A DNA stretch of 64,000 nucleotides from Candidatus Woesearchaeota archaeon (GCA_018303655.1 JAGVXT010000021.1:18811-82810), one strand, 5' to 3'; positions 13,443 through 52,986 are shown, numbered from the stretch's first letter. Made by a program: numbers and translations. Notes: generated from the sequence alone by a model not told the origin.

Positions 13443-14963
13443 TTAACTCGTCGGGGATGCTAAGTGCTTTGACAAGGACCTTATATGCCTGGATAACATG
13501 CCGGGAAGCTTTAGAATAGCAGTTGGATCTCTTTTCAGGAGATAAAGGAAAGACCATGGCCTTTTTTTGAGCTTTGATATTGTAAATTCCCTGTAGAACA
13601 TTTCCCTGTATTTTATAAGCTCTTCCTGGGGCAGGTTAGGAAGCTTAATCATGTAATCGCCGAACAATGCCAAATGGTGGTCAGTAAGGTTTTTCATATG
13701 CTCCTCCTTATCTATATAGCCGTTCTTGATGCAGTCATTGTAAAAAGCCGTGCCTGGGAGAACTGATGGGAATATAACTGTGATTTTATCCAAAGGCAGT
13801 TCCTTTGCAAATTCTATGGAATTCCTTATAGACTGGTGGGTCTCGCCTGGCATTCCTATTATGAAGTATGCATTAAGGATAAATCCCAGCTCATGGGCGA
13901 TGCCTGCAATTTCTCTTACCTTGTCAAGCGACAGCTGCTTGTTCATCACTGTATTCAGCATGTAATCATCCCCTGACTCTATGGGAAGATTCAGCGAATA
14001 GCAGCCTGATTTTCTCATAAGTGTAAGGACTTCCCTGTCCAAAGTTCTTATGGAGACTCCTGCAGGCACTTTCCAGTATATATTCAGTTTTCTTTTTATG
14101 ATTTCATTGCAGATGGCCTTTGTCCTTTCCCTGCTGACCGTAGGATTGTCATCTTCAAGCGCAATTTCTTTTGCATTATACTTCTTGACAAGATGCTCTA
14201 TTTCATCCACAACATCAATAGGGTCTCTTGGCCTCCATGTCGGCCCGCCTACAGAATGGACGCTGCAGAATGTGCATCTTTGGTGGCAGCTTCTGCTTGT
14301 TATCACGGACATCTCCCTTTTTGATTTTTTGTCCCACCTGACTGCGCTGTTTTCAAAGTATTTCTCAACTTTTAAAAGGTGCCTCGCAGGCCATGGAAGC
14401 TCGCTTGGGTTTTTTATGAATTTTGTTTTTGGGTTTTTTCTCATTTCCCCGTTGTCCATGTATGCTATGCCATCTATGTCCAGAAGATTTGGATTGTTAT
14501 TTTCAATATGATTGACAAGGTCAAGGGTTGTGAGCTCAGCTTCAGCAATTAAAACATAGTCAATGTATCCTGTCTTAAGAAAATCCTCGTAATTAACGCT
14601 GGGGTGTATTCCCCCGACAAAAACCTTGATGTTTGGGTTTATTTCTTTTATAATTTTACATGTTTCAACAGTAAATTTCATCCTTATCGCAAAAGGGCAC
14701 GATACTCCCACAACATCGGGATTTTCCTGCTTGATTCTTTCTTTAAGCTCGTCAAAAGAAAGCCCGACATGGTATATCCCTTCCTCAAATTGTTTTACAT
14801 CCCCTTCCACCGCAGCATCTATTATGCTAACTTTGTACTCGTTTTTTTCAAGAACAGCAGCTATATATGCAAGGCTCAAAGGAAGGACAACGTTTACATC
14901 CTTTTTCCTTCTTGTCCTGTTCAAATAAGGGGGATTTATCAAAAGCACTTTTGTATTTTTCAT
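13443..14963 (-). CDS. cobalamin-binding (class B) radical SAM protein
   Basis: N-terminal B12-binding-like domain (MKNTKVLLINPPY...VLPLSLAYIAAVL). Radical SAM cluster motif SCHQRCTFCS (CxxxCxxC). Confidence 0.8.
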   Translation of the reverse strand: MKNTKVLLINPPYLNRTRRKKDVNVVLPLSLAYIAAVLEKNEYKVSIIDAAVEGDVKQFEEGIYHVGLSFDELKERIKQENPDVVGVSCPFAIRMKFTVETCKIIKEINPNIKVFVGGIHPSVNYEDFLKTGYIDYVLIAEAELTTLDLVNHIENNNPNLLDIDGIAYMDNGEMRKNPKTKFIKNPSELPWPARHLLKVEKYFENSAVRWDKKSKREMSVITSRSCHQRCTFCSVHSVGGPTWRPRDPIDVVDEIEHLVKKYNAKEIALEDDNPTVSRERTKAICNEIIKRKLNIYWKVPAGVSIRTLDREVLTLMRKSGCYSLNLPIESGDDYMLNTVMNKQLSLDKVREIAGIAHELGFILNAYFIIGMPGETHQSIRNSIEFAKELPLDKITVIFPSVLPGTAFYNDCIKNGYIDKEEHMKNLTDHHLALFGDYMIKLPNLPQEELIKYREMFYREFTISKLKKRPWSFLYLLKRDPTAILKLPGMLSRHIRSLSKHLASPTS

Positions 14964-15113
14964 CTGGAATCAAGTTGCTTTATCCCTATATAAAGTTTTC
15001 TGAATCCCGGGCTTCAGATTTAGCCATTTTGGGGAATTTGTTATCTTGGATTTCTATAAAATCTGAACAAATTATTTAAATACCTGCTGTTAGCGCTGTC
15101 TTGAGGTGGCTTT

Positions 15114-15251
15114 ATGGGAAACATGATAAAAGGTGATGTGTATTTCTGTGAGGATTGCAAGCTTGAAGTGACAGTCACCAAGCCGTGCGATGAGGATTAC
15201 TGTGACATGATGTGCTGCGGGCAGCAGCTGAAAAAGAAGCATGGCAAATAA
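15114..15251 (+). CDS. desulforedoxin-like small Fe(Cys)4 protein (45 aa; not in the supplied ORF track)
   Basis: MGNMIKGDVYFCEDCKLEVTVTKPCDEDYCDMMCCGQQLKKKHGK. GDVYxCExC...CCG matches the desulforedoxin / desulfoferrodoxin N-domain pattern. Confidence 0.55.
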   Translation: MGNMIKGDVYFCEDCKLEVTVTKPCDEDYCDMMCCGQQLKKKHGK

Positions 15252-15284
15252 CAATTAAAAATGAAATGATATGGGGGAATGAAT

Positions 15285-15419
15285 ATGGAAGGAAAAGAAT
15301 GCAATGCTGACAGCGATATAGTAAAGGAAATTTTGTATATAGCTGAAATTCACGGCTTGACAAATAGGGAAAGATGCATAAAAATTGCGGATATTCTGAA
15401 CAGGCATTTTTCAAAATAG
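15285..15419 (+). CDS. hypothetical small protein (44 aa)
   Basis: ATG-initiated open frame (MEGKECNADSDIVKEILYIAEIHGLTNRERCIKIADILNRHFSK) between the desulforedoxin-like gene and the next CDS. No other support. Confidence 0.2.
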   Translation: MEGKECNADSDIVKEILYIAEIHGLTNRERCIKIADILNRHFSK

Positions 15420-15431
15420 TCTGTAAGGCAA

Positions 15432-16982: not shown

Positions 16983-17012
16983 AATTCTGCATACAGGCTT
17001 GATTATAAATAT

Positions 17013-18983
17013 TTAATAAAATTTCTTACCTGTTTTTTTATTTTCCAACAACTCGTCCACAACATTCAGGAATCTTTCTGTCGCTTTCCCGTCAATTCTG
17101 TGATAATATTCTAAAATGGATTTTTCTCTTTTTATTTTTATTTTTTTGGAGAATGATTCATCAAACAAAGAACGTTTAATAGCTGTTGGCAAATCTTTTT
17201 TGTTAGTTATTTTTATAAAAGCTTTATTCTTCATATCTCCAAAAAAGTCGTAATTTTCAATAAGGTTGAGCTGTATAACAGGCTTGCCCATAACCGATGC
17301 CTCAAGTATTACAGTTGAGCTTATGGAAACAACAAGATCTGAGCAAAAAAGCAAGGAATAAAGATCCGTATCTTTTGTGACAATTGCCTTATACTTCAAA
17401 TGAGATAGAATTTCATTATAAAAAGAACTATCATCGTCAACATGTAATTTTACAACTAATTCAACGTTCTTTATATTTCTTAGAGATTTGACAATCTCAA
17501 TCAAAGCCGTTCTTGGCTCTGAAGAATCTTCAAAAGGTTGTGATGCAAATACCACCAGTTTTTTTTTATGATCTACTCCAAATTTTCTACACAAGCTTTT
17601 TTTTGAATATTTGTTTTTATTTTCATAGAATATATCTGTTCTTGGTTGACCTGTTATAGCTATTTGATCCTGCCTGTAATTTCCGTTTTTTATCAATAAA
17701 TCTTTAAATTTTTTTCCGAATACAGCAGTCTTTTCTGCTAAGATGCAGTTTAATTTATTTTTATAGCAATGTAAATCCTTTTTACTATAATCATAAGTTA
17801 CTTTAATTGGGGCTATTACACCATGTTGGAGTCCTACTGATGGAATGTTACACATATGTGAAGCAAAAACTAAGAATCTAGAATTGCCATTCTCGTCAAT
17901 GCAGATAGTAATATCAATATTATAATTTTCAATCAGTTTTTTGCTTACTTCCATGTTTCTTGCAGCGCTTAAAAATGAGTCAAACCTGTTAAAGAAGTAG
18001 GATTTGATTTTTGGCTTTAGAATAAAACTAAGATCTATTCCATTATAAGTCAAAGTTTTCTTTAGTTTATTATCTTCATCCAGCCTGTTCCATGCCTTTC
18101 TTAGCCTTTGCCTCAAGAATCCTATATTTTTTGTTATTTCAACGTCAAAATAGCTCCTGAATATAAAATAGTCATAGGGAACAAACGGCCATTTTTTCTC
18201 CCTGATAGATTTCCATTGCGCGTTTTTATCAATCACAACATCAAGAGGCAGTACATTATGCTCGTTTTTGCGAAGCAATTCCCTTAATATGGTGTACGAA
18301 TTATGGTCTCCTCTTATGCTCTCGCTTAAGTTTGTCCAGTCCTGCGTAAACAAAAGAACATTCTTCTTTCCATGCTGCATTTTAATTTGAAAAGACCGCG
18401 TAAAACCCTGGAATATTCTGATAATTCTCGGGAGAGAGCCAAAAAAAAGCTTTTTTATTTTTATTAGATGATTAGTTTTTTCCAAATTTTTACCTTCATT
18501 ATTAATAACAATTCTGAGTCTTATGCCCTTTGTTGATTCCTGCACAATGGAAATGAATTCTTCATCATTATTTAAGAGAAGTATTCTTTTTATATTATTT
18601 TTATTTACTAAAGATCTAACAACATAAATTTCTTTCATTACCCCAACTAGTTGTTCATAAAACCCCTGCCTTACAAACCACCACATTGAATAACCATTAT
18701 ATTCAAGTAACTCTACTAAGGATTTTTCATTTAGAATTTTTTCATGGGGGAAATTTTCTACAAATTTCAATAATTTTTTTTTAAGGGAGTCTAAATTGAT
18801 GTCCTTTGTATAATCACTTATTAGCAAATATTTCAGGCCATGTTCTCTGAAATAAGTCTCCATAGAATTATTCCACAGCACAAATATTTTTTTTTTAAGA
18901 TTTAGGGGATTATTCTCAATTAGATAGTTAACAGTGTTAATATCATTTTTTTTAACTACAAATATATAAGTAATTCTATTCAT
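17013..18983 (-). CDS. GT-B fold glycosyl- or glycerophospho-transferase (TagF/CapZ/KpsC-like), 656 aa
   Basis: C-terminal ...KKLVVFASQPFEDSSEP...CSDLVVSISSTVILEASVMGKPVIQLN resembles the C-terminal domain of TagF-type CDP-glycerol glycerophosphotransferases and related GT-B capsule enzymes. Confidence 0.4.
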   Translation of the reverse strand: MNRITYIFVVKKNDINTVNYLIENNPLNLKKKIFVLWNNSMETYFREHGLKYLLISDYTKDINLDSLKKKLLKFVENFPHEKILNEKSLVELLEYNGYSMWWFVRQGFYEQLVGVMKEIYVVRSLVNKNNIKRILLLNNDEEFISIVQESTKGIRLRIVINNEGKNLEKTNHLIKIKKLFFGSLPRIIRIFQGFTRSFQIKMQHGKKNVLLFTQDWTNLSESIRGDHNSYTILRELLRKNEHNVLPLDVVIDKNAQWKSIREKKWPFVPYDYFIFRSYFDVEITKNIGFLRQRLRKAWNRLDEDNKLKKTLTYNGIDLSFILKPKIKSYFFNRFDSFLSAARNMEVSKKLIENYNIDITICIDENGNSRFLVFASHMCNIPSVGLQHGVIAPIKVTYDYSKKDLHCYKNKLNCILAEKTAVFGKKFKDLLIKNGNYRQDQIAITGQPRTDIFYENKNKYSKKSLCRKFGVDHKKKLVVFASQPFEDSSEPRTALIEIVKSLRNIKNVELVVKLHVDDDSSFYNEILSHLKYKAIVTKDTDLYSLLFCSDLVVSISSTVILEASVMGKPVIQLNLIENYDFFGDMKNKAFIKITNKKDLPTAIKRSLFDESFSKKIKIKREKSILEYYHRIDGKATERFLNVVDELLENKKTGKKFY

Positions 18984-19007
18984 GGTGCTGTCTGCTAATA
19001 AGCTCCT

Positions 19008-19850
19008 TTATAAAAACTTTACTGGCATAATAAAGACTAGTTGAAGATAATCTCTAAAACATAAAATTGTATTGTGGGCGATAGCCCTACAATACATCTC
19101 GGCTCTTTGAGACTTCATATTCAAAGAGCTGACGCTAGTTCCAAATTTTCTTTTGATGGAAAAAATCACAGATTCAGCCATGCTTCTCCTATTGTAAACT
19201 CTTTTCTTAAAATTTTTCAAAACTTTATGCCTTACAAAACCTCTGAAGGCATTCTTTCTTACTTTGACGACTGGGGCAATTCCATTGTCCCACAAAAATT
19301 CATAGAATTTCTCTGAATCGTATGCAGAATCTGCAACTAATTTGCAAGGAAATCTTGCGAACCTTTTAACCAAATATTCTGCATCTTTGATGTCATGCGA
19401 TTTTCTTGCTCTTGTCCTAAGAGCAAGAATTCTCTTGCTTCTTGTGTCAACAGCAAGAGAAATTTTTATGGGAATGTCGACGGGATATGGCTTGTCAATC
19501 CTTTTATAATAGTAAGGGCTTGGCAAAGTCCTTGACATGCCTGTTGAGTCAATCGCAGCAATCTTAACTTTCATGCTTGCTGTGGCAGCAAGCAAAGTTT
19601 GCCAAATTTCAATTGGCATTCTGTAAGCAAACTTTGCTAAGGCAGAATAAGTTGGAACTTTAAGTCCCAAATCGTTTAGCAGATTGCTTGTTCTCCTGAA
19701 ACTCAACTTACATTCTTGCTTTACAAGTAAAGCAATAACATGCTGCCAAAGCTCGTAAGTCTTTGGCCCGAATTTATTTAAATGTCTGGGCAGTTTTGCT
19801 TTCCTTAGCAAACGCTTAACTTTATTTTCTAGTCTTTTTTCCTTTTTCAT
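19008..19850 (-). CDS. IS4/IS5-family DDE transposase
   Basis: N-terminal HTH. DDE region ...KLVADSAYDSE.... Canonical Y(2)R(3)E(6)K signature VYNRRSMAESVIFSIKRK. Likely start is the ATG at 19848-19850; the ORF track extends to a GTG at 19862. Confidence 0.85.
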   Translation of the reverse strand: MKKEKRLENKVKRLLRKAKLPRHLNKFGPKTYELWQHVIALLVKQECKLSFRRTSNLLNDLGLKVPTYSALAKFAYRMPIEIWQTLLAATASMKVKIAAIDSTGMSRTLPSPYYYKRIDKPYPVDIPIKISLAVDTRSKRILALRTRARKSHDIKDAEYLVKRFARFPCKLVADSAYDSEKFYEFLWDNGIAPVVKVRKNAFRGFVRHKVLKNFKKRVYNRRSMAESVIFSIKRKFGTSVSSLNMKSQRAEMYCRAIAHNTILCFRDYLQLVFIMPVKFL

Positions 19851-19870
19851 GGTGGGGTGCACTCCCCACC
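19851..19870 (-). promoter_or_regulatory. perfect 7-bp stem hairpin GGTGGGG-TGCACT-CCCCACC immediately 5' of the transposase ATG (likely translational occlusion of the start/RBS)
   Basis: Seen directly in the sequence. A second hairpin AGCAGCC-TAAC-GGCTGCT follows at about 19872-19893. Confidence 0.5.
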
Positions 19871-19984: not shown

Positions 19985-21466
19985 CTAAGACTGGGCTAAA
20001 GAAGCTTTTCCTTCATCGTTCTCTGAAGTAGAGGCTCTTATTTTCATATAATAATGCTCTTCAGCATCCTTAAATCTCAAATATCCCCCTATTCTTCTTA
20101 AACATGACTTCACAGTTTTTTTAAAACCCCATAACCGATAATAGTCTACTATAAGTCTTGCAAGAATCCACGGTCTTGCATAACAATAGGCTCTCAGTTC
20201 CTTTTCAATATCATTTCTTATCTGAATTAATTCTTCATCTGTAAAATCAGTCATATTAATTTTCAAATCAGAAGCATCTCCGAGATTTTCAACGTATTTA
20301 TCCTCATCATCAATTTTATTTTTCCATTCTTCCCACAATGGCGTGCCAGGAAATGCTGTTGCAAAGAAGAAATTTGCTGGTAAGCCTATTTCCTTACAAA
20401 AATCAACAGTTTCCCTTATTGTTTTCATATTTTCCCCGGGGTATCCAAGCATGAAAGTCCCTCCTGATTTCAAGCCCAGCCCCTTTATTTTCTTGTATAT
20501 TTCTTTGGCTTTCTGCAGATCTATCCCCTTCTTCATATTATCAAGTATTGTTTGGCTTCCACTTTCTAATCCATAAGATATAGAAAAGCAGCCTGCTTTT
20601 TTCATTTTTAAGATAAGGTCCTCATACAAATATTCCAATCTGGTGAGACAATGCCACTTGAGATTTAACTTTTGTTCTATCATTTTGTCGCACATCTCTC
20701 CAACAATCTTCCTGTTAAGCAGAAATAAATCATCAAAAAACATTATTCCATTTATGTTGTATTTTTCTTTTAGATGCTTCATCTCAGCTACAATGTTATC
20801 AGCGCTTCTAAATCTCGCTTTCTCGCCCATAAATGAATGATAGCAGAACTTACAAAGAAAAGGACATCCTCGTGTTATTATCATTGGCATCATTCTTCGA
20901 TTCTGTTCAACTTCTTGTGTGTTTTTAATATAAGTTTCAAAAGGGAACAAGTCCCATTCAGGGAAAGGAATATTGTCAATATTCTCTATTATTTTTCTTG
21001 GAGAAGTATAGATTATGTTTCCATTTTCCTTATATGCAAGTCCATCGACTTTTTTTAGAGCGATGCTTTTTTCCAGAGCATCGGCAAGTTCACAAACTGT
21101 TACTTCTGCTTCTCCAATCATTAATATGTCAGAAGAAGTATATTTAAAAAGAAGATGTGGAATCTCATTAGATATATTACCACCAATAACTATAGGCTTG
21201 TCCGGGTGATATTTTTTCAAAACCGGAGTAAGAAACTTTAAATATTTGTATAATGTTATAACTCCTCCAGTACATACCATATCATAATTTAATTCTCTTA
21301 TCTTATTTTCTACTTCACTTCTATCATAGCGGAAACCATTTATGTCCAGAACCTCAACCTTATGATTGGCTTTTCTCAGAACAGCAATTAGGTATGCCAT
21401 TCCAAGAGGTAATGTAAATGGTGGAAATCTTTCACTTATTGGGCAGTTGACTAAAAGTACTTTCAT
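19985..21466 (-). CDS. cobalamin-binding (class B) radical SAM protein
   Basis: N-terminal B12-binding-like domain (MKVLLVNCPIS...LPLGMAYLIAVL). Cluster motif RGCPFLCKFCYHS. Confidence 0.8.
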   Translation of the reverse strand: MKVLLVNCPISERFPPFTLPLGMAYLIAVLRKANHKVEVLDINGFRYDRSEVENKIRELNYDMVCTGGVITLYKYLKFLTPVLKKYHPDKPIVIGGNISNEIPHLLFKYTSSDILMIGEAEVTVCELADALEKSIALKKVDGLAYKENGNIIYTSPRKIIENIDNIPFPEWDLFPFETYIKNTQEVEQNRRMMPMIITRGCPFLCKFCYHSFMGEKARFRSADNIVAEMKHLKEKYNINGIMFFDDLFLLNRKIVGEMCDKMIEQKLNLKWHCLTRLEYLYEDLILKMKKAGCFSISYGLESGSQTILDNMKKGIDLQKAKEIYKKIKGLGLKSGGTFMLGYPGENMKTIRETVDFCKEIGLPANFFFATAFPGTPLWEEWKNKIDDEDKYVENLGDASDLKINMTDFTDEELIQIRNDIEKELRAYCYARPWILARLIVDYYRLWGFKKTVKSCLRRIGGYLRFKDAEEHYYMKIRASTSENDEGKASLAQS

Positions 21467-21674
21467 TCTTAAACATCTAAACCATCAAGCTTTTATCCAT
21501 AAATATAAATATTTTTGATAATATTATTTATGGAATTACTTGACATTATTGACACCAATATTTAAATTTTCCTATAGCAAAGTGTTGAGGTCACAAAAAA
21601 TTACAGTAAATCTTATAAATCAACTAAAATTCTCATGGATAAATCTATTAGATTGGGAAGGGAGGCTTATTTAT

Positions 21675-23390: not shown

Positions 23391-23418
23391 TTCTAAAAAA
23401 AGAAATTTTATTTTTGGA

Positions 23419-23925
23419 TTAATTAGTCTTTTCTTCTTTCAATATTATGTCTGCAACTTCTCTTATCGCCCCTTCGCCGCCTTTCTTTTTTGTGACAATA
23501 TTTGCGGCTTTTTTAACTTCAGGATATGAATCGCTGACAGCTATTCCGATGCCGGCATATTTTATGCATTCAATATCAGTTATGTCATTCCCGATAAAAC
23601 AGACTTCCTCTTTGCTTATGCTTCTTTTTGCAAGCTCTTTTTTCAAAATTGGTAATTTGTTATTTATTCCTTGAATGCATGGAATTTTTAGCTTGCCGCA
23701 TCGCGTTTTAACGACTTTATTCTTTTCCTTTGATATCACAATAACTTCAATGCCATTCTTCTTAAGCAATTCTATTCCCAGGCCGTCTGACCTGTTGCAT
23801 ATGACCGATTCCTTGCCGTTTTCATCAACAGTGACCTTATTATCAGTCATAACGCCATCAAAATCGCATGCCAAAAGTTTTATTTTAGCAGGATTTGCAG
23901 CTTTTTTGATTTTGTTTTCTTTCAT
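23419..23925 (-). CDS. HAD-IIIA phosphatase, KdsC family (ulosonate/nonulosonate-phosphate phosphatase)
   Basis: LLACDFDGVMTDNKV... matches the KdsC motif I (DxDGVLTD). Length 168 aa. Confidence 0.75.
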   Translation of the reverse strand: MKENKIKKAANPAKIKLLACDFDGVMTDNKVTVDENGKESVICNRSDGLGIELLKKNGIEVIVISKEKNKVVKTRCGKLKIPCIQGINNKLPILKKELAKRSISKEEVCFIGNDITDIECIKYAGIGIAVSDSYPEVKKAANIVTKKKGGEGAIREVADIILKEEKTN

Positions 23926-23931
23926 AACAGC

Positions 23932-25547: not shown

Positions 25548-25554
25548 TTTGTCT

Positions 25555-28164: not shown

Positions 28165-28192
28165 AATGACCTTGTATTTTTGTAATCTGATT

Positions 28193-28906: not shown

Positions 28907-28908
28907 TG

Positions 28909-43909: not shown

Positions 43910-45123
43910 TTTATTTGGGAAATTAATTCATTAAACTTTCTTCCTATCAAATCCCAGGAGTATATTTTTTTTACTTTCCTTTTGCCATTTAGTGCCAGGC
44001 TTTTCCTAAGCTTTTCATTATGCAATAATTTTATTATAGCAGCTGACAATTGCTTTGAATCTTTCTGCCTTACAAGAAGCCCAGTCTTGTTATTCTCTAA
44101 TATATCTGGGATTCCGCCGACATTGCTCCCTATTACACAAGTTCCTGATGCCAGCGCCTCAAGGAAGACAACTCCAAGCCCCTCCGTGTCGCCGCTTTCT
44201 GTAATTATGGACGGGCCTACAAATAAATCGGCAGTGGCGTAAAATTCCGGCAGATGCATGTTTTCCATTCCTCCGGCAAAGAGCACGTTTTTATCAAGCT
44301 TGAGCTTTTTTGTGAGAATTTCCAGGTTGCTTCTTTCCGGGCCATCCCCAACAACAACAAGCTTCGCTTCAGGAAATTCTTTCACAACATCTTTCATCGC
44401 CATTACAAGGTATTTAATTCCCTTTTTTTCAGCGAGCCTGCCTACGCTCAGGATAAGTTCTTTTTTTACACCAAGTTTTCTTCTTAAGCTTGTATTCCTG
44501 TTTTTCTGCGTGAATAGTTTCAGGTCAACGCCCATTGGAATTATATTTATTTTTTTTTGACCTGAGATTTTTTCCAATTCTTTTTTTGTATAACTGCTGT
44601 TCGCAGTGCAAAAATCCGAATTGCTCACAGCTAAATAGGAGAGGAATCTGAATAATCTGTTTTTCAGCGGAAAAACATCTCCGGCATGGGCTGTTACAAT
44701 ATAAGGAACTCCGAACATTTTTTTGCATAAATAAGCTAGAAAACCCTGGGGCACTGTCCAGTGCGCATGTATCACATTAATTTTCTCCTTTTTTATTAAT
44801 ATTATAGTATTAAAAAATTCAAAGGCAACAAGCAGCGGCAATTGAATGTAGGCAATTTTATATCTTTTTAAGTTTGCAAAAATCCCGCCTTCATAACAAA
44901 CCTTTTGCAGCTTGTACGGAAAGAAATAGCTGAACCTGTATATATTTACATTGTCAATAACTTCATGCTTCTTCGCTTTGTGGAAATGCGGCGCCAATGC
45001 AACTACCTTATGGCCATGGCTGGCCAACAGTCTGCTTAGCACAAAGACAAAATTCGGCTCCGTGTCATTCCTCCATCTAGGGAATGTCGTAGCTGTCACT
45101 AAGATGTTTTTATTGGACATCAA
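43906..45123 (-). CDS. glycosyltransferase family 4
   Basis: ...GVVFLEALASGTCVIGSNVGGIPDIL... is a canonical GT4 motif. Confidence 0.75.
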   Translation of the reverse strand: MMSNKNILVTATTFPRWRNDTEPNFVFVLSRLLASHGHKVVALAPHFHKAKKHEVIDNVNIYRFSYFFPYKLQKVCYEGGIFANLKRYKIAYIQLPLLVAFEFFNTIILIKKEKINVIHAHWTVPQGFLAYLCKKMFGVPYIVTAHAGDVFPLKNRLFRFLSYLAVSNSDFCTANSSYTKKELEKISGQKKINIIPMGVDLKLFTQKNRNTSLRRKLGVKKELILSVGRLAEKKGIKYLVMAMKDVVKEFPEAKLVVVGDGPERSNLEILTKKLKLDKNVLFAGGMENMHLPEFYATADLFVGPSIITESGDTEGLGVVFLEALASGTCVIGSNVGGIPDILENNKTGLLVRQKDSKQLSAAIIKLLHNEKLRKSLALNGKRKVKKIYSWDLIGRKFNELISQIK

Positions 45124-45162
45124 GTAAAGAATATAGTTATTTATTTAAAAAGCTTGTTAAGC

Positions 45163-46653
45163 CTAGGAAGCCAAGACATTTCTTAAGGTTTTATATACTT
45201 TAAGCTCCGGTGTAAAGGAAAAAAGTCCGTGCTTCCATCTGAATTCCAGCCATTTCATGGCTATCGAATAGGGAAGCTTGTTCCATTTGGGAAAAAGGTA
45301 TTTGAACCAGTCTGAGTTTAAGTATGATATCTGCTGTATGTTGTCCAGGTATTTCCTGTCTGTTTCGCACAGGCTAAAATTAACCAAAGTGCTTCCCCAA
45401 TAAAACTTTGACCATTCTTCAAAGCTTTTTGGCGGCTCAAAGCCGTGCTTTATGGCAAGCTCGTACAAGGGAGTTCCGGGATATGGTGTGTAGATGCCTA
45501 TTCCATGGACCTGGGCTCTTGAATTTTCTTCCTTCAGTTTGACCACCATCCTGCACGTCATCTCTATTTCCTCTTTGGTTTCTGTCGGGAAGCCCATCAT
45601 AAAGCTGTACATTGGAGCTATATTATATTTTTTAGTGTCCCTGTTTACCTCATACACCTGTTCTGCCGTATTCGGCTTGTCAATCATCTTGAGTATTCTG
45701 GGGCTTGCGCTCTCTATTCCAAACCTGAATGAGGAGCATCCTGATTTCACTACCTTTTCCTTTATTTCATTTGGCATTTTTGTGTATGTAAAAACCGTGA
45801 TGCCGGAGGAAGTCCACTTTACATCCATGTTTTCCTTTATCATCAAGTCTGCAACATTTTCAACTCTCTTTAAATCCACGAAATAATTATCGTCATGCGC
45901 CCAGATTCCGTCAACCTTGAAGTCATCTACCACCTGCTTGAACATCTCAAAAGTTTTGTCAGCAGGCATGCCCCTCCAGTACATCCTGTTGAAAAAAAGA
46001 TTGTAGCAAAAAGAGCATTTATGCGGGCATCCCCTGCTGGTCACGCCTATGTCAAGCATCCGCCTTACTTCCCCGTCAAACATCATGCTTCCCTCATTGA
46101 TGTACTTTTCAACATCCACAAGGTGCCATGGAGTTGGCTTTATCTCGGCAAGGTTCATCATCTTTTCATCAGGAGTGTGAATTTTTTTTCCGTTTTCCTT
46201 AAAGGAGATGCTGTTTATTTTTTTTAGGTCTTCCTTGTTTTTTAGTGAATTGACAAGCTTCCTGAAGTTTATGTCGCCTTCGCCTCTCACAATTATATCT
46301 ACATATTCATTCTCCAAAGTCTGGTCCGCAAGCATGCTTGCATGAACGCCGCCCCACACAAGCGGTATCGTGTTATCAGCCAAAGACCTGATGTATTTTG
46401 CAGTCTCCAGCCCGTAATTGATCGGCAGGCCTGTCATTGCAGATATGGCAATGCATACAGGCTGTTGGTTTACATAACTGGTAAGCTTGCTTTTCCAGTG
46501 GGGATCCACCCTCTGGTCCAGGATTTTTACATTATATTCATCAAGAAGCTCCGAGGCGATAGACATCAGGCTATGTGGCGGAGAGAAAGCTGTTTTTTTG
46601 TTGGTTTCCCCTCCGGATGGATAGATTAATACTACATCAACACTTTCTGCCAT
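45163..46653 (-). CDS. cobalamin-binding (class B) radical SAM protein
   Basis: B12-binding-like N-domain. RGCPHKCSFCYN. The likely start is the internal ATG at 46651-46653 (MAESVDVVLIYP); the ORF track extends to 46776. Confidence 0.8.
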   Translation of the reverse strand: MAESVDVVLIYPSGGETNKKTAFSPPHSLMSIASELLDEYNVKILDQRVDPHWKSKLTSYVNQQPVCIAISAMTGLPINYGLETAKYIRSLADNTIPLVWGGVHASMLADQTLENEYVDIIVRGEGDINFRKLVNSLKNKEDLKKINSISFKENGKKIHTPDEKMMNLAEIKPTPWHLVDVEKYINEGSMMFDGEVRRMLDIGVTSRGCPHKCSFCYNLFFNRMYWRGMPADKTFEMFKQVVDDFKVDGIWAHDDNYFVDLKRVENVADLMIKENMDVKWTSSGITVFTYTKMPNEIKEKVVKSGCSSFRFGIESASPRILKMIDKPNTAEQVYEVNRDTKKYNIAPMYSFMMGFPTETKEEIEMTCRMVVKLKEENSRAQVHGIGIYTPYPGTPLYELAIKHGFEPPKSFEEWSKFYWGSTLVNFSLCETDRKYLDNIQQISYLNSDWFKYLFPKWNKLPYSIAMKWLEFRWKHGLFSFTPELKVYKTLRNVLAS

Positions 46654-46775: not shown

Positions 46776-48230
46776 ATGAGCAGCGTCAGGAGAATTGCCG
46801 TAAATACTGTATCTTTGGGCATTGCAGAGATAGTTGCAAAGGTTGCCCAATTCATTATTTTTGTTTATGTAGCCAGGCAATTGGGCAATGCTATGTTTGG
46901 AAGATTCAACTTTGCCTATTCATTTTCATTGATAGCGGTGATATTTGCCGATATAGGAATAAACTATATGATTATCAGGGAGATTTCCAGAAAAAAAGAG
47001 CTGTTGAATAAGTTCATTAGCAACTCTTTCTTAATAAAAATAGTGCTGGGCACTATAATTTTTATTTTAAGTGTTGCTGTTCTGAACGCTTTCAATTATC
47101 CCAAAGAGACCAGGATTCTGGTTTATTTGTTTTTAGTGTATATGTTTTTGCGCTCCAATACGGAGCTTCTATTTTCTGTTTTTAAGGCATTTGAAAGGAT
47201 GCACTATGAAGCTTTGATAAAAAGCTTGGGAATCATCTTGATTCTTATTTTAGGCATATACAGCCTGATGTTTGCGAAAAACATAATTTTTCTCGGCTTT
47301 CTGTATGTCCTGGTCGAGCTTTCAGTGTTCTTGGTGACTTTGGCCGTTGTGACGACTAAATTCGTGAGGATTAAACTGGAGGCTGACTTTGCCTTCATTA
47401 AGAAGATAATAAAGCTTGCATTCCCGTTTACATTGGCTGTTATTTTTTCAGGGGTTTATTTTTATATTGACACAATCATGCTTTCATTCATGAAGGGTGA
47501 TGTTCCTGTAGGGGTATACAGCGCTTCCTATAATATAACGTTGGCTTTGTTGTTTATACCAAGCATGTACACCTTTGCCATATACCCGATCCTGGCAAGC
47601 AGTTATGATAAATCTAAAAAAAAGGTTACTTTTATATATGAAAGATCTTTCAAGTACCTGTACATACTTGGCTTGCCTATAAGCATTGGCCTTTTTATTA
47701 TTGCAAGAAATATAATTCTTTTTGTTTACGGGCAGAATTATTCATCCTCAATAATTGCACTGAAAATTTTGGCATGGTTTGTGCTGTTTAAATTTTTAAG
47801 CTACCTGACCGGGATTGTGCTTTCCTCAATAAATATACAAAAATACAGGACCTACAGCCAGGGCACAGCTGCGTTTTTGAACCTTGGGCTGAACCTTATA
47901 TTAATCCCAAAATATAGCTTTATAGGGGCCGGAATTGCCACTTTAACAAGCGAGATAGTTTTATTTGCGCTTACTTTTGCCTTTGTTTCCATGCATTTTC
48001 ATGCTTTCAATGTGCTGAAAATTCTGTATAAGCCATTAATTGCTGCGGCTGTAATGGCAATTGCAGTTATTTTTTTGGAGCTGAACATGTTTTTGGTCAT
48101 AATAATCGGTGCTGTTGTGTACTTCACGGTTTTATTTTTGCTAAAATCATTTGATGAAAAAGATTATTCATTGATGAAAAAATTGATAAAAATAGGCAAT
48201 CCTGATAAACATGAAATGTCATCCAGCTAG
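46776..48230 (+). CDS. Wzx-like oligosaccharide flippase (MOP family)
   Basis: 484 aa with about 12-14 TM helices. Confidence 0.7.
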   Translation: MSSVRRIAVNTVSLGIAEIVAKVAQFIIFVYVARQLGNAMFGRFNFAYSFSLIAVIFADIGINYMIIREISRKKELLNKFISNSFLIKIVLGTIIFILSVAVLNAFNYPKETRILVYLFLVYMFLRSNTELLFSVFKAFERMHYEALIKSLGIILILILGIYSLMFAKNIIFLGFLYVLVELSVFLVTLAVVTTKFVRIKLEADFAFIKKIIKLAFPFTLAVIFSGVYFYIDTIMLSFMKGDVPVGVYSASYNITLALLFIPSMYTFAIYPILASSYDKSKKKVTFIYERSFKYLYILGLPISIGLFIIARNIILFVYGQNYSSSIIALKILAWFVLFKFLSYLTGIVLSSINIQKYRTYSQGTAAFLNLGLNLILIPKYSFIGAGIATLTSEIVLFALTFAFVSMHFHAFNVLKILYKPLIAAAVMAIAVIFLELNMFLVIIIGAVVYFTVLFLLKSFDEKDYSLMKKLIKIGNPDKHEMSSS

Positions 48231-49455
48231 AAAATATTCTGTTTTGGAAAGCATAAAAAACAGGAAAGAAGTTAAAGAAGATGCAGCAATAAATTTTTTG
48301 CAAGGAGAATTGCATGACATAGCCTATTCTTATGTTAACGGGGGTTTTTCCAGAAAGGGCTTTGTTTTTTATCCGTTGATGAAGGGTTTGTCGAACGAAA
48401 ATAAAAATAAAATAATTGGATTGAGAACAGTTGCTGAATTTCTTGATGAGCGTGGCTATGATTTCAGCAGCACGTTGGGCTTATTCAAAAAATTTAAGGT
48501 AAATGGAAAGAGCGCGCCTTTGTTTTTATCCTGTTTGTATAATGATTTTTCAAATGCAGGGAAGCCGAAAACAGAAACCAGAAGAGTGGGATGCGAAGAA
48601 TTTGACTTGAGCAGTTATCCAAGGGAAGATTATGGGTATTTGAAACCGGTAGTGGAGCTAAAGGGGTTTGCTGAAGGTAAGTTGGAGGAATATTTAGTGG
48701 ATCTGCACATACACGGGAGCATAGCCACCAGAGATTATGTAAGGGGCTGGAGCGACTTAGACACGCTTATCATAATAAAGAAAAGTGCCTTGGACAGTCC
48801 TAAGCTGCTTGTTAAGCTGAGGGATTTGCTTTACATGTCTAAAAAGTATTTTTACAAAATTGATCCTTTGCAGCACCATGGCCACATGGTTATAACAGAA
48901 TATGACCTTGATTATTACTGCCAAACATTTTTCCCTTTGATTTTATTTAAGTACTCAAAATCTGTTTTTGGGAAAAAAAGCCTAAATGTCAAAGTTAGAG
49001 ACAGCAAGACAGAGAATGTAGATCGCTTTTGCTCTTTCGCGGATTATTTCAGGAACCTGTACCTGAACAAGAAGTTTTCTATGGGCAGCTACGAGCTGAA
49101 ATTCCTTTTTCATGCCATTGCCCTGTTTCCGACATTGTACCTGCAGGCCAAGGAAATACATGTCTATAAAAAATTCTCATTTGGCATGGCAAGAAAGGAT
49201 TTTGATGAAGTGCTGTGGAATCCGATAGATGAAGTCACCAGTATAAGAAAGGAATGGAAGGCACCAGGCGAGATGCCATTTATTGGGACAATCTCAAGCA
49301 TAAATCCTTTGCTTGCTTATCAGATAAATTCAAAATATCTGGATATGTCCAATAAAATTCAGAGATTAAATAATTTTGACATTAAGAAGATTGTTGTGGG
49401 GATGTATGCGCTTTCGGAAAGTGCATTGAGCAAGATAAAGCCTAGTGATTCCTGA
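48211..49455 (+). CDS. Pol-beta superfamily nucleotidyltransferase-fold protein (414 aa)
   Basis: HIHGSIATRDYVRGWSDLDTLIII matches the minimal NTase motif hG[GS]-x9-13-Dh[DE]. Followed by a HHGH-type segment. Confidence 0.5.
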   Translation: MKCHPARKYSVLESIKNRKEVKEDAAINFLQGELHDIAYSYVNGGFSRKGFVFYPLMKGLSNENKNKIIGLRTVAEFLDERGYDFSSTLGLFKKFKVNGKSAPLFLSCLYNDFSNAGKPKTETRRVGCEEFDLSSYPREDYGYLKPVVELKGFAEGKLEEYLVDLHIHGSIATRDYVRGWSDLDTLIIIKKSALDSPKLLVKLRDLLYMSKKYFYKIDPLQHHGHMVITEYDLDYYCQTFFPLILFKYSKSVFGKKSLNVKVRDSKTENVDRFCSFADYFRNLYLNKKFSMGSYELKFLFHAIALFPTLYLQAKEIHVYKKFSFGMARKDFDEVLWNPIDEVTSIRKEWKAPGEMPFIGTISSINPLLAYQINSKYLDMSNKIQRLNNFDIKKIVVGMYALSESALSKIKPSDS

Positions 49456-50647
49456 AAAGGCTCCTAAATGAAAATAATATTCTTCTGAAAGCAGAACTGC
49501 TTGTTATGAGAATGAATGCGAGTATTAGCTTGTTCTTGAAGCCTCTTTCAGTCTTGTAGCCCAAGGGGAAGAAGCATGGGTAATGAGAGTGCTTAAGCTT
49601 ATTGGCGTACTCAACCTGATCATTTAATATCTGGATTCTTTTTTTTATGATTGGGTCAATATTGCTCTGCATGCATTTTATGGAAAGCCTTTTTTTTATA
49701 TATCTGCTTAGCCTTCCGTCAGCGCTTGAATAGCAGCATAATTGATTCAATAGGCTTATGGGAAGTATGGAGTAAAAGTTCTTGTATTTCACAAAGTGAT
49801 TTATCATCTGGCTTACCGCTCTTTCATTGTTCCATTCCTTCACGAATGAAATCCTGTTTTTGTTGCCCTTAAATATGATGTTTTGTTTTTTTGCGTTTAT
49901 AAGGTTGTTTTTATCCCTTGATAGGAATGCGTTGAATTCCGTAACAAAGTCCATTGACACATAAACCGCCTCTTTCAATAAATCGAAAAGCTCTGCTTCT
50001 CTTGGCTTTTCATTTAGCCTAAACCAATTTTTCCTGAGGTTGTTTACCCTCCCAGAAAAATTTTTCCATGCTGGTTTTTTTAAGCCGGCAATTTCATTGA
50101 AAATATTGAAACTGTGACCTAATGCATTGAGCCTTACCAGAACCATCCTGGCATTAAGCCTTTTTGAAAGGAGTATGTAAAGGTAATCAACCGGAAAATG
50201 CCTTAAAATAACGTCTGCTGTAAGGCAAGTTTTGATTTTTTTAAGCTCTGATTTTGAAGGCGTGTGGATGGCAATTTCCTTTCCGTATATTTTTATGAAA
50301 TTTGAGTTTGGATAGATGTATCTCATGTTTTTCATGATATCCTCAGTTATGATAAAAAAAGGATGAAAAACCAGATAGCTTGAGTCTTTATCGGTGTAAG
50401 TTCTCCTAAGAAATGATGGAAGCCTTGAGCCTTCTTTCAGCACAAATATAAGGTCTATGTCGGATATTCCTGGGACGCTTACATGCCCGAATGTATAGAC
50501 TGAAAGTATTTCCTTTGTTTTTTCTGCTTTGCGCCTTATCTTATCCAGCACACGTTCATAATCTTTTAGCCCGTACTTAATGGGGTGCGCATAGAATGAA
50601 ATATCTTCCTTTTTTAAATTCTCAATGTAGCGGTTTTTTATTTTCAT
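49442..50647 (-). CDS. Pol-beta superfamily nucleotidyltransferase-fold protein, paralog of 48211..49455 (401 aa)
   Basis: FGHVSVPGISDIDLIFVLK (GS..DxD) followed by ...VFHPFFIITED.... Same architecture as the neighbour. The two genes are convergent with a 14-bp 3' overlap. Confidence 0.45.
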   Translation of the reverse strand: MKIKNRYIENLKKEDISFYAHPIKYGLKDYERVLDKIRRKAEKTKEILSVYTFGHVSVPGISDIDLIFVLKEGSRLPSFLRRTYTDKDSSYLVFHPFFIITEDIMKNMRYIYPNSNFIKIYGKEIAIHTPSKSELKKIKTCLTADVILRHFPVDYLYILLSKRLNARMVLVRLNALGHSFNIFNEIAGLKKPAWKNFSGRVNNLRKNWFRLNEKPREAELFDLLKEAVYVSMDFVTEFNAFLSRDKNNLINAKKQNIIFKGNKNRISFVKEWNNERAVSQMINHFVKYKNFYSILPISLLNQLCCYSSADGRLSRYIKKRLSIKCMQSNIDPIIKKRIQILNDQVEYANKLKHSHYPCFFPLGYKTERGFKNKLILAFILITSSSAFRRILFSFRSLFRNH

Positions 50648-50653
50648 GCAGCA

Positions 50654-51454
50654 CTATCTGTACCTTATCGGGTTTCTCTTTTTCATTTCTGCGTACAAGT
50701 AATTGAATTCCTCTCCTGTTATTTCTTTGTTGTTCAGCTTTTTCAGTATGATGCCGAAGTTATAGGGCCCTTCCGCAACCCTGAAGTAATCTATTACCTT
50801 GAATCCAAGAAACTGGAAATATGTTTCATGAAGGCTGCTTATGTAAGCTCCATGGCAATGCACGCTGTAACCATCCTTTTTTGTAAGATCAGATAGAATG
50901 GCATAAATTTCCATGGCCCTGCAAACGTTTGAATGCTTTTCGTCCTCGATGCTTGGGTTGTCGTGCAGCAGGTTGTTTGAAAAGGTTATGTCAAATTTTT
51001 TGCTTGCTTTTGAACCAAAATTTTCCAGACTCAGAATTTTTCCATTGTCTTTTGCCATCAAGCTGGTGGTGTTTGCCCTTGTCTTGCCTAAGAAGCCCAA
51101 ATGTTCGGTTTTTGCATCAACAGGCAATATTTCCAATAAATCAATGCCTGAGAAATCAACGTTTGACAGTACCTTTCTAAGCTCGCTTATTTTTGACTCT
51201 TCAATCTCAAAAATGTTTTTTGCCAGGTTAAATTCAACAAATGGCTCTATAATCGTGAAAAATTCATTTAACCTGTTCTTGGCAAGAAAAGAGCAGTTTA
51301 TGATATTCAAGAGCAAAGGGTCATAGCTGGAATTCAATATTTTTGGAAATTTGTCCTTTTCAAACAAGACTATTCCGTTTCTTGTTTTTTCATGAAAAAT
51401 TTGCACTTTGCTGTTAATTGTGTCATCAATGCCTTTCCTGATGTCAACTTCCAT
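50654..51454 (-). CDS. hypothetical protein (266 aa)
   Basis: No recognisable motif. Confidence 0.3.
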   Translation of the reverse strand: MEVDIRKGIDDTINSKVQIFHEKTRNGIVLFEKDKFPKILNSSYDPLLLNIINCSFLAKNRLNEFFTIIEPFVEFNLAKNIFEIEESKISELRKVLSNVDFSGIDLLEILPVDAKTEHLGFLGKTRANTTSLMAKDNGKILSLENFGSKASKKFDITFSNNLLHDNPSIEDEKHSNVCRAMEIYAILSDLTKKDGYSVHCHGAYISSLHETYFQFLGFKVIDYFRVAEGPYNFGIILKKLNNKEITGEEFNYLYAEMKKRNPIRYR

Positions 51455-51582
51455 AAGCTTGGATTATAAACCTGTTTTATAAAACTTTCCTCAATATTTA
51501 TGCCGATAGTTGGGTGTTTTATTGTCGTTGTATCACAGAAAACTTTATATATGGCAATACATACTTAACAATTGTGAATTAA

Positions 51583-52986
51583 ATGAAAGTATTGCTTATA
51601 CTGCCTCCAAATATAGGAAGGTATGTTGTTGCTACAGTCCCGCATGCCGGCCTTGCTTATCTTGCAGCTATTTTGGAAAGGGATGGCCATCAGGTTGAAA
51701 TACATGACATGAGGATTTATTCTGATGACAGGCTTTTGGCAAAAAAGATTGAAAGCTTCAAGCCAAGGCTTATAGGCCTTTCAACAGCAAGCATCGGGTA
51801 TAAGATGTCTTATGAAATAATCAACACGATAAAGAAAAAATACCCGAATATCCCATTGGCCATCGGTGGGTCATACGCTTCCACGGTTCACACAAAAGTT
51901 TTGGAGGATACTAAAGCAGATTATGCTGTTTATGGGGAAGGGGAACAAACCTTTTTGGACTTGGCAAAAGGAATTGCTCCGAGCAAAATAAAGGGGCTTA
52001 TCTGGAGGGATAACGGGGAGATTATAATGAATCCGCCTTATCCGCTTGTGCAGGATCTTGACAGCATGCCTTTTCCAAAATATGAGAAATTTGAATTAAG
52101 CAAGATGCTTGAGAAAAGGATTCCAATAGTAAGCTCAAGAGGATGCCCGAACAGGTGCACTTTTTGCTCCATACAGCTTGTCATGGGATATCCGTTCAGG
52201 ACCCGAAGCCCTGAAAATGTCTTGAAGGAAATTGAATACTGGTATAAGAAAGGCTACGACACATTTGAGTTCAGCGATGATAATTTCACCTTCAACATGC
52301 CGAGGGCAGAAAAGATATGCGACTTAATAATAGAAAGCGGCATGAAAATAAAGATAATTTTTGGCAATGGCTTGAGGGCTGACAGGGTTAACGCAAATCT
52401 GCTTAAAAAATTAAGGGAAGCAGGATGCATCTGGATAGGCTACGGGCTTGAGACTTCTGATTTGCACAGCCTGGAGCTGTTGAAGAAAGATTTGGATGTA
52501 AACCAGCTGAAATGGGCTGTCAAGGAGTCAAAAAAGCTGGGAATTGAAGTGCAGGTCCATAACATAATCGGAACGCCTGGGTCAACATTTGACACTTTTA
52601 TGAAAGACATTAAGCTTGCGGATGACTTGGGCATTGACCAAGTAAGATTCTTTAACATGATTCCGTACCCCGGAACTGAGATGTTTGAATGGGTAAAGCA
52701 GAATGGCAGGTTTTTGCACCAGCCTGATGAATATCTGAACAGCCTGGATTACTGGGCTGAAGAGCCTGTTTTTGAGACAGATGACTTCACAAGAGAAGAA
52801 AGAATCAAAGCTTTCCGCATAGGCCAGGACAAGGTTATGGAGCTTCATTTAAGAAGGCACTTTGGCAAGGGCTTGGGAAGAATGGGCTTTAAATTATACA
52901 AGAACAGCCTGATAAAAAAGTATGGCATGAAGCCGGCTACAAAAGCTTGGATTATGCTCAAAAGATTAAGAATAAAGCAGCATTAA
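51583..52986 (+). CDS. cobalamin-binding (class B) radical SAM protein
   Basis: [10 protein letters not shown]...[23 protein letters not shown]. Confidence 0.8.

Follow-up and report, generated by a model that had tools for sequence, protein, structure and literature searches.

B12-binding-domain radical SAM enzymes of four subfamilies in a probable surface glycan island of a Woesearchaeota archaeon

Four radical SAM genes and their surroundings

The genes described here, denoted R1 to R4, are located within a 64,000-nucleotide stretch of DNA from Candidatus Woesearchaeota archaeon (GCA_018303655.1, JAGVXT010000021.1:18811-82810), a DPANN archaeon from Rifle groundwater. We refer to this whole stretch as the window and count positions from its first nucleotide. 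A preliminary description of the window assigned to each of the four open reading frames (ORFs) an N-terminal cobalamin-binding-like domain and the CxxxCxxC core of a radical S-adenosylmethionine (SAM) enzyme, and Pfam together with a motif scan bore out both features at the following positions:

13443-14963, minus strand: R1, B12-binding-domain radical SAM enzyme of 506 amino acids (aa), CHQRCTFC at residue 226
19985-21466, minus strand: R2, B12-binding-domain radical SAM enzyme of 493 aa, CPFLCKFC at residue 201
45163-46653, minus strand: R3, B12-binding-domain radical SAM enzyme of 496 aa, CPHKCSFC
51583-52986, plus strand: R4, B12-binding-domain radical SAM enzyme of 467 aa, CPNRCTFC at residue 188

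The N-terminal B12-binding domain (PF02310, gathering threshold 32.1 bits) scored 81 bits in R1, 45 in R2, 34.5 in R3 and 75 in R4, and the Radical_SAM domain (PF04055, threshold 29.5 bits) scored 80, 98, 73 and 76 bits, respectively. With the CxxxCxxC motif inside a PF04055 core above threshold, all four are predicted members of the radical SAM superfamily, and the PF02310 Rossmann domain ahead of that core, marginal in R3, gives them the predicted architecture of class B enzymes. The motif occurs once in each of R1 to R4 and in none of the others among the 56 ORFs extracted from the window, so that a chance pattern is not at issue; it is also invariant in the family alignments of the radical SAM proteins. 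Aligned with one another, R1 to R4 have GG, GE(G/A)E-like, CxxxCxxC, DD, G-C, E, G-x-P and P-G-T positions in common. The R2 family carries extra semi-conserved cysteines (C258, C292 and C356) that raised the question of an auxiliary Fe-S cluster; these are dispersed, with at least the G-C position common to all four subfamilies. Ahead of its ATG at 46653, the R3 ORF stays open as far as a TTG at 46776; a start at the ATG yields 496 aa, in agreement with the lengths of its orthologues.

A hydropathy scan predicted no transmembrane segments in R1 to R4. Their C-terminal ~45 residues form strongly basic, amphipathic helices (net charge +9 in R1, +4 in R2, +6 in R3 and +14 in R4) that supply most of the net positive charge of each protein. 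These tails are possible membrane-surface anchors and would be compatible with enzymes that work on lipid-linked intermediates at the membrane face.

The window holds about 56 substantial ORFs, and by Pfam and NCBIfam annotation the part from 2.7 to 64 kb is almost entirely given to glycan synthesis. It encodes glycosyltransferases (three GT4, at least two GT2 and one GT-C/PMT_2 enzyme), sugar enzymes (UDP-GlcNAc 2-epimerase, short-chain dehydrogenase/reductase (SDR) epimerases/dehydratases, nucleoside triphosphate (NTP) transferases, UDP-Glc dehydrogenase, DegT and GFO), decorating enzymes (hexapeptide acetyltransferase, TagF-like transferase, VimE-like deacetylase (DUF7033) and NodU-like carbamoyltransferase) and five class-I SAM methyltransferases. 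Two Wzx flippases complete the set of neighbours, namely glycosyltransferases, flippases and SAM methyltransferases, that the preliminary description had reported. As annotated, the window is an island for the biosynthesis of cell-surface glycan, likely serving an N-glycan or a surface-layer (S-layer) glycan; no AglB gene was found within it.

R1 to R4 belong to four subfamilies

The four genes had been described as paralogous. They do derive from one old superfamily, but the term overstated their closeness: pairwise identities among R1 to R4 are 25-29%, and relatives in other phyla are 40-45% identical to each of them, closer than any partner within the genome. We therefore regard R1 to R4 as four separate subfamilies and not as a local expansion; recent paralogy is ruled out by the 25-29% identities. 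The subfamilies are distinct, widespread and uncharacterised.

Rifle aquifer metagenome contigs carry exact copies of R1, and one protein of 95% identity bears the name Candidatus Woesearchaeota. Three R1 relatives fall at 80-95% identity, and the next are at or below 44%, in DPANN, Methanoperedenaceae, Clostridia, Aminicenantes, Dependentiae and the candidate phyla radiation (CPR). R2 has relatives at 67-87% and then a large bacterial set at ~42% (Omnitrophota, Margulisbacteria, Planctomycetota and Nitrospirota). For R3, relatives comprise 2,273 representatives of 50%-identity clusters at E<=1e-30, with 85-90% identical orthologues in Woesearchaeota genome bins from groundwater. R4 relatives form ~65 sequence clusters at 64-94% identity, the named ones nearly all from Woesearchaeota or Nanoarchaeota, followed by proteins at 42-55% elsewhere.

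Some members of the R1 family (among P0083, P0098, P0060, P0069, P0084 and P0085) are fused to a class-I SAM methyltransferase domain (~705 aa) or to tetratricopeptide (TPR) repeats (~540 aa). In a Woesearchaeota locus whose R3 is 90% identical (L016), an extra B12-type radical SAM gene at 3483-4922, 34% identical to R4, adjoins the R4 orthologue. Close relatives differ in how many such genes the island carries.

Relatives of all four lie among glycan genes

Glycan clusters were present at every locus annotated with Pfam for a relative of at least 40% identity (L007, L008, L009, L010, L011, the P0128 contig, L012, L013/14, L015, L170 and L172). R1 orthologues of 38-42% identity sit in such clusters in a Methanoperedenaceae archaeon (L007), a Clostridia bacterium (L008) and an archaeal contig bearing STT3/AglB (L009). 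R2-type genes do so in Omnitrophota (L010), Margulisbacteria (L011) and a DPANN-like contig (P0128), and R4-type genes in Woesearchaeota (L012-L014) as well as, with homologues of 42-49% identity, in GCA_002011125.2 (L015) and Thermodesulfobacteriota (L172). In several clusters the B12-type radical SAM genes number two to four and are interspersed among glycosyltransferase genes; the order in L172 is GT2, radical SAM, GT4, methyltransferase, radical SAM, GT4, sulfotransferase, GT4, radical SAM. The alternation of radical SAM and glycosyltransferase genes in L172, L015 and L009 suggests action on a growing glycan.

We also scanned 163 loci with iterated hidden Markov models (HMMs) made from marker genes of the window and counted as neighbours the core glycan genes no more than 5 kb away. 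For relatives with scores of 300 bits or more, at least one such neighbour was present in 4/4 loci for R1, 4/4 for R2, 7/8 for R3 and 6/6 for R4, in total 21 of 22, an enrichment judged against general expectation only and in a sample biased toward relatives of glycan-linked seeds. Over all radical SAM ORFs in the scan, at least one core glycan gene lay within 5 kb of 154 out of 246. The preliminary description would have given way if homologues elsewhere never co-localised with glycosylation genes; homologues of all four do.

The distant comparison set came from a metagenome scan with an R2 alignment and generic motifs (RGCPYxCxYC, ESGSQ), and consists mostly of 26-35% identical class B enzymes, not of R2 orthologues. 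Distant relatives occur in arrays, with three to six B12-type radical SAM genes packed into ~20 kb, in Acidobacteriota (L058, L062, L072, L074), Smithella (L055, L087), Thiosymbion (L028, L033) and Woesearchaeota (L049). Most arrays have no glycan marker in the locus, the exceptions being one GT2 in L049, one SDR epimerase in L033 and, by iterated markers, Wzx plus GT2 in L028. The arrays point to other multi-step radical pathways that use distant R2/R3 relatives.

Family scores and fold models

The best partial matches from family and structure searches mix methylases (Sden_1168, PhpK, MgmA/QCMT, CysS) with non-methylases (HpnJ, BchE, AprD4), and all NCBIfam scores are below cutoff. R1 matched Sden_1168 (NF038361, cutoff 575) best, residues 4-425 scoring 240.6 bits, followed by HpnJ. 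HpnJ (TIGR03471, cutoff 577.6 bits) was the best or second-best match for all four, at 193.6 bits for R1, 169.2 for R2, 109.9 for R3 and 156.3 for R4. BchE (TIGR02026, cutoff 481.35) gave 144-159 bits for all four (158 for R2; 147 for R3, its best match), PhpK (TIGR04479, cutoff 600) gave at most 155 bits, for R2, and the best match of R4 was ApyD at 162 bits. Scores were 50-98 bits for AprD4 (NF033070, which asks for 500 bits and a full-length alignment), 74-120 for MgmA/QCMT (TIGR04014, cutoff 360) and 92-127 for the B12-type family of ladderane/lipid type (TIGR04072, cutoff 360). We rejected the names BchE, YgiQ and RimO that homologues carry in source databases, all scores being below cutoff, and regard the 'Mg-protoporphyrin cyclase' names given by JGI as over-annotations, the BchE cutoff not being reached.

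AlphaFold2 models of R4 (predicted local distance difference test, pLDDT, 92.6) and R2 (pLDDT 86.6) gave full-length fold matches to CysS (9n1b), TsrM (6wte), MgmA/QCMT (9ccb), TokK (7kdx) and OxsB (5ul2), with E values of 1e-18 to 1e-24. These solved class B enzymes, whose substrates are a protein glutamine, polyketide or carbapenem intermediates, tryptophan and a nucleoside, differ from R1 to R4 in their C-terminal domains and share 14-23% identity over the structural alignments. AprD4 (PDB 6fd2), a sugar 1,2-diol dehydratase that does not bind cobalamin (PMC12931638), is the closest or near-closest structural neighbour and is of similar size; since it matches equally well, fold alone cannot separate a methylase from a dehydratase.

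In a sequence search against solved structures, the N-terminal domains of all four aligned to the cobalamin domains of CysS, TokK, OxsB or TsrM, whereas alignments to AprD4 were confined to the radical SAM core (R1 271-436, R2 199-379, R3 205-405, R4 182-373). A match to proven cobalamin domains at the N-terminus, with AprD4 matching over the core only, favours the prediction that R1 to R4 are true class B enzymes that bind cobalamin.

R2 accompanies an ulosonic acid module

At the positions above R2 lie a divergently oriented carbamoyltransferase gene and a module for an ulosonic or nonulosonic acid (Pfam):

21540-23390, plus strand: NodU/CmcH-type carbamoyltransferase, divergent from R2 (Carbam_trans_N, Carbam_trans_C; NodU-like 171 bits, below cutoff)
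23419-29943, minus strand: ulosonic/nonulosonic acid module, with KdsC-type phosphatase, two SDRs, xylose-isomerase-like TIM barrel, VOC/glyoxalase, class-III aminotransferase, CMP-sugar cytidylyltransferase and NeuB synthase
25555-26397, within the module: xylose-isomerase-like TIM-barrel gene
28909-29943, minus strand: NeuB ORF (NeuB 260 bits)

The cytidylyltransferase matched CTP_transf_3 at 96 bits and the phosphatase the KdsC subfamily TIGR01670 at 127 bits, over its cutoff of 107; PseF-like (142 bits), NeuB_NnaB (259 bits) and PseI matches remained below cutoff. A NeuB synthase, a CMP-sugar cytidylyltransferase and a KdsC-type phosphatase thus stand together beside R2, as predicted for an ulosonic acid cluster. 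With NeuB_NnaB and PseI below cutoff, candidates for its product are neuraminic (Neu), legionaminic (Leg) or pseudaminic (Pse) acid, 2-keto-3-deoxynononic acid (KDN) or a sugar like 3-deoxy-D-manno-octulosonic acid (Kdo). In the NeuB ORF the match to the NeuB domain begins only at residue 70-90; the N-terminal extension of ~70-90 residues ahead of it might reflect a wrongly placed start or a small additional domain.

NeuB and/or the CMP-transferase adjoin R2-type genes in 7/7 independent contexts (the window, L170/L171, the P0128 contig, L011, L010, which is the same locus as L073, L040 and L090). The same adjacency was seen for 1/53 of distant R2-like genes (120-200 bits) and for none of the R1 and R4 types. 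In L170 (R2 78% identical) the order on one strand is Wzx, NeuB, iron alcohol dehydrogenase (Fe-ADH), DegT, CMP-transferase, KdsC-like phosphatase, R2. Compared with L170 (5499-9911), the window has the carbamoyltransferase inserted, and Fe-ADH/DegT are swapped for the SDRs, TIM barrel, VOC and class-III aminotransferase; R2 therefore stays with a core of synthase, phosphatase and CMP-transferase while the tailoring genes vary. We take the Fe-ADH/DegT pair to resemble the KdnB/KdnA route, in which a terminal hydroxyl is oxidised and then aminated to give Kdo8N. Either cassette could give an amino-ulosonic acid. In the Thermodesulfobacteriota cluster L172 (4676-6556), NeuB is fused to an AP_endonuc_2 (xylose-isomerase-like TIM) domain, which ties the TIM-barrel gene of the window to the NeuB pathway. 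R2-type genes directly adjoin aminotransferases and oxidoreductases in the window, L011 and L170. Carbamoyltransferases occurred near B12-type radical SAM genes in 4/163 scanned loci only (L015, L097, L101, L125), and so this link is weak.

R3 and R4 form part of a conserved Woesearchaeota module

Around R3 and R4 the following genes were identified (Pfam, except for the orphans):

41720-43909, minus strand: 729-aa soluble orphan, no Pfam or NCBIfam family
43906-45123, minus strand: GT4 glycosyltransferase directly downstream of R3 (Glycos_transf_1, 158 bits)
46776-48230, plus strand: Wzx flippase between R3 and R4 (Polysacc_synt, 12 predicted transmembrane segments)
48211-49455, plus strand: 414-aa orphan, no family match at E<=0.001
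49442-50647, minus strand: 401-aa orphan, no family match at E<=0.001
50654-51454, minus strand: 266-aa orphan, no family match at E<=0.001
52983-56822: nucleotide-sugar genes beside R4, namely SDR epimerase/dehydratase, NTP-transferase, UDP-glucose/GDP-mannose dehydrogenase and a second NTP-transferase

The order R3, Wzx and the 414-, 401- and 266-aa orphans is kept in L012, L016, L017 and L019 (Woesearchaeota, R3 58-90% identical), four loci from three or four genomes. R4 comes next in L012, L016 and L019, and the short contig L017 stops before the R4 position. On the other side, R4, epimerase, NTP-transferase, UDP-glucose dehydrogenase and NFACT are kept in L013 and L014. Across L012, L013, L016, L017 and L019 the orphans are conserved with R3 or R4. 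R3 and R4 are thus part of a conserved Woesearchaeota module with the GT4, the Wzx flippase, nucleotide-sugar genes and three orphan genes.

All four orphan proteins, including that of 729 aa, are soluble and keep company with R3/R4 across Woesearchaeota. Two of the orphans, of 414 and 401 aa, carry the G-S...D-x-D motif of Pol-beta nucleotidyltransferases, and a profile of the former weakly matched the CD-NTase CdnD (E 6e-4). None of the orphans matched a Pfam or NCBIfam family at E<=0.001, permissive Pfam searches added only a weak nucleotidyltransferase match for the 414-aa orphan, and profile searches of the 401-aa and 729-aa orphans against solved structures gave nothing. The orphans could be LicD/fukutin-like phosphotransferases or new glycan-modifying enzymes.

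R1 and the variable junction with R2

The genes next to R1, and the gene that separates it from the R2 module, are these (Pfam):

11676-12404, minus strand: class-I SAM methyltransferase, third member of the R1-FemAB-methyltransferase trio
12304-13356, minus strand: FemAB-like/Acetyltransf_6 gene directly downstream of R1
19008-19862, minus strand: DDE transposase (DDE_Tnp_1) between the R1 and R2 modules

R1 is associated with the FemAB-like acyl/aminoacyl transferase and the methyltransferase. The trio is kept in L170 (R1 83% identical), L009 has a FemAB-like gene close to its R1-type gene, and the trio was not seen in L007 or L008. L009 was the sole match of the FemAB-like marker among the 163 loci scanned; because of this we do not claim the pairing, found also in the window and in L170 (outside the scan), as general.

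Beyond the transposase, Fic and hypothetical genes replace R2 in L001 and L002, while L003 and L004 agree with the window, and L170 has no transposase at the R1-R2 junction. The junction is strain-variable, and the island is rearranged there between strains.

Proposed reaction and alternatives

R1 to R4 extend a known enzyme class by four new members with no family assignment. Their probable role is the modification of surface sugars; the exact reaction is a prediction. The preliminary description envisaged C-methylation or other radical tailoring of glycan sugars or of the lipid carrier. Its glycan part gained from the glycan link of relatives elsewhere and from an island with sequon-rich proteins (see below); its methylation part met partial matches that mix methylases with non-methylases, and nothing favoured the lipid carrier over sugars. 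With methylating and non-methylating versions taken together, glycan tailoring by R1 to R4 is well supported and, we believe, highly probable.

C-methylation is the single most likely reaction, in our estimate only just short of an even chance. Characterised class B enzymes are mostly C-methyltransferases (PMC12931638), and sugars are C-methylated by GenK, GenD1, Fms7 and MoeK5, with Fom3 acting on a CMP-activated substrate (PMC9204698, PMC12931638). GenK, GenD1/GntE, Fms7, MoeK5 and Fom3 resemble R1 to R4, as predicted here, in a B12-binding Rossmann domain with a CxxxCxxC barrel, in sugar, lipid-linked or cytidylylated substrates, and in genes placed among glycosyltransferase and sugar-nucleotide genes (PMC9204698, PMC12931638). 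Compared by descriptions only, they differ in serving actinomycete antibiotic pathways, whereas R1 to R4 lie in surface glycan islands of archaea and candidate phyla.

We tentatively propose, with confidence slightly under one half, that R1 to R4 are soluble class-B-type enzymes in which a Rossmann domain for cobalamin binding comes first, followed by a [4Fe-4S]/SAM barrel and, at the C-terminus, a basic helical tail, and that each is wired into a different part of glycan assembly. They would act on the cytoplasmic side, ahead of glycan flipping. Reductive cleavage of SAM would yield a 5'-deoxyadenosyl radical, which would take a hydrogen from an unactivated carbon of a nucleotide- or CMP-activated sugar or a lipid-linked oligosaccharide; methylcobalamin would then hand over its methyl group to give a C-methyl sugar, and a second SAM would re-methylate the cobalamin.

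Several observations weigh against this proposal. None of R1 to R4 reached an NCBIfam equivalog cutoff, the best score being 42% of cutoff, and the top partial matches include the non-methylases HpnJ and BchE. The PF02310 score of R3 is marginal (34.5 against 32.1 bits), and AprD4 gave the best TM-scores for both models (R4 0.76/0.78, R2 0.69/0.75; range 0.67-0.78). Because five class-I methyltransferases are already encoded in the island, it has methylation capacity independent of R1 to R4. Reduced-genome DPANN, CPR and Omnitrophota are usually unable to make cobalamin. Distant relatives (120-300 bits) have glycan neighbours in only ~50-65% of loci, and some of them lie in 4-6-gene radical SAM arrays without any glycan genes.

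Part of this evidence would fit glycan tailoring without methylation, a serious alternative although we consider it rather unlikely. Here one or more of the enzymes would carry out an AprD4-like radical 1,2-diol dehydration to a keto-deoxy sugar, for reduction by a neighbouring SDR or amination by an aminotransferase, and others an HpnJ/OxsB-like ring contraction, oxidation or epimerisation, cobalamin being absent or only an electron sink. The host lineages are probably B12 auxotrophs, and the aminotransferases and oxidoreductases beside R2-type genes are as expected with a carbonyl intermediate. AprD4 with its sugar substrate paromamine was the top Foldseek match for R2 and gave the best TM-score for R4, but its family scores are 50-98 against 500 bits over the core only, and the N-terminal domains of R1 to R4 find their sequence matches in genuine cobalamin domains. 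The hopanoid-associated B12-type enzyme HpnJ, not a methylase, is proposed to contract the ring of a lipid-linked glucosamine (PMC9204698); it ranks first or second for all four, at 110-194 against 578 bits (19-34% of cutoff), and no hopanoid genes occur here. Cobalamin-free members of the same sequence network are known, AprD4 and ArsL being examples of how similar the sequences can be, yet characterised class B enzymes mostly methylate (PMC12931638).

A substrate other than a glycan, with the glycan neighbourhood incidental, is improbable. Membrane lipids (GDGT-MAS/Tes or ladderane type), cofactors, tRNA/rRNA or peptides (ApyD, or the type of ribosomally synthesised and post-translationally modified peptides) would come into question, as suggested by the partial matches to ApyD (R4, 162 bits), TIGR04072 (92-127 bits) and MiaB/RimO, all of which score far under cutoff. 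R4 is unusually conserved across Woesearchaeota, in the manner of a housekeeping gene, and radical SAM arrays that lack glycan genes hold many of the distant relatives. Against this, glycan operons of different phyla repeatedly contain close relatives, often flanked by glycosyltransferase genes of the same orientation, the association of R2 with NeuB is specific, and no precursor peptide, lipid or cofactor genes stand beside any of R1 to R4.

A role of the Sden_1168/PhpK/Fom3 type for R1, and perhaps for others, in P-methylation or phosphonate tailoring, by which the glycan would gain a methylphosphonate-type group, is very improbable: the near full-length Sden_1168 match of R1, the name 'phosphonoacetaldehyde methylase' given by JGI to one homologue (P0025), and the hint at phospho-substituents from the TagF-like gene (17013-18983) and two nucleotidyltransferase-fold orphans are set against a score at 42% of the 575 cutoff, the lack of a phosphoenolpyruvate (PEP) mutase, phosphonopyruvate decarboxylase or other phosphonate gene in the window, and a physiological substrate of SD_1168 that is itself unknown (PMC9204698).

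Returning to radical tailoring of glycans, a bolder extension seems to us possible, though held loosely: the R2 subfamily may be a dedicated, hitherto unrecognised step for ulosonic (sialic-acid-like) acids, C-methylating or otherwise radically remodelling a CMP-activated 8- or 9-carbon keto-deoxy sugar acid, in common between Omnitrophota, Margulisbacteria and the archaea of DPANN. In a wider sense, the alternation of genes for glycosyltransferases and radical SAM enzymes may reflect stepwise radical editing of lipid-linked surface glycans, leading to sugar structures absent from glycan databases. The hypothesis suggested by the strict pairing of R2-type genes with those for NeuB and the CMP-transferase is a concrete one, namely a modified sugar of sialic-acid-like type that is as yet undescribed.

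To our knowledge, sugar-acting class B radical SAM enzymes have come only from antibiotic pathways. If four subfamilies do act on primary surface glycans, radical C-C chemistry would join ordinary archaeal and bacterial glycan assembly. If the enzymes are B12-dependent, reduced-genome episymbionts (DPANN, CPR, Omnitrophota) would rely on scavenged cobalamin for making the cell surface through which they touch their hosts. We found no open-access paper combining radical SAM enzymes with nonulosonic acid, and none combining them with AglB, N-glycosylation and archaea. In the paper on the Campylobacter HS:19 capsule locus, where B12 is unmentioned, the radical SAM genes are annotated as 'radical SAM metalloprotein' and a sulfatase-maturase-like enzyme. 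The link of R2 to ulosonic acid and the Woesearchaeota R3/R4 module appear undescribed in the open-access literature searched.

Secreted proteins and further genes of the island

Three genes for secreted proteins and three further glycan-related genes lie elsewhere in the window:

342-2657, plus strand: secreted protein with a signal-like N-terminal hydrophobic segment, 54 N-x-S/T sequons (7.0 per 100 aa)
8087-10999, minus strand: 970-aa secreted protein with a signal-like N-terminal segment and a C-terminal transmembrane anchor, 40 sequons (4.1 per 100 aa)
11080-11592, minus strand: secreted protein with a signal-like N-terminal hydrophobic segment, 5 sequons (2.9 per 100 aa)
17013-18983: TagF-like glycerophosphotransferase
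31342-32832, minus strand: second Wzx flippase (Pfam)
32862-34718, minus strand: orphan membrane protein with 10 transmembrane segments (hydropathy scan), candidate polymerase or GT-C enzyme

The median sequon density in the window is 0.4 per 100 aa. The three sequon-rich proteins are plausible candidates for S-layer or surface glycoprotein substrates encoded beside the glycosylation genes.

Two short ORFs follow one another on the plus strand, the first (30120-30521, 133 aa) with a weak zinc-finger/Methyltransf_13-like match and the second (30613-31182, 189 aa) with the C-terminal part of Methyltransf_23 only; together they look like a split or frameshifted gene of the sugar C-methyltransferase type. 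A further ORF of 249 aa (6022-6771, minus strand), kept in L001 and L002, matches only fragments of the N-terminal and central domains of UDP-glucose/GDP-mannose dehydrogenase and would be either a truncated dehydrogenase or a divergent short form.

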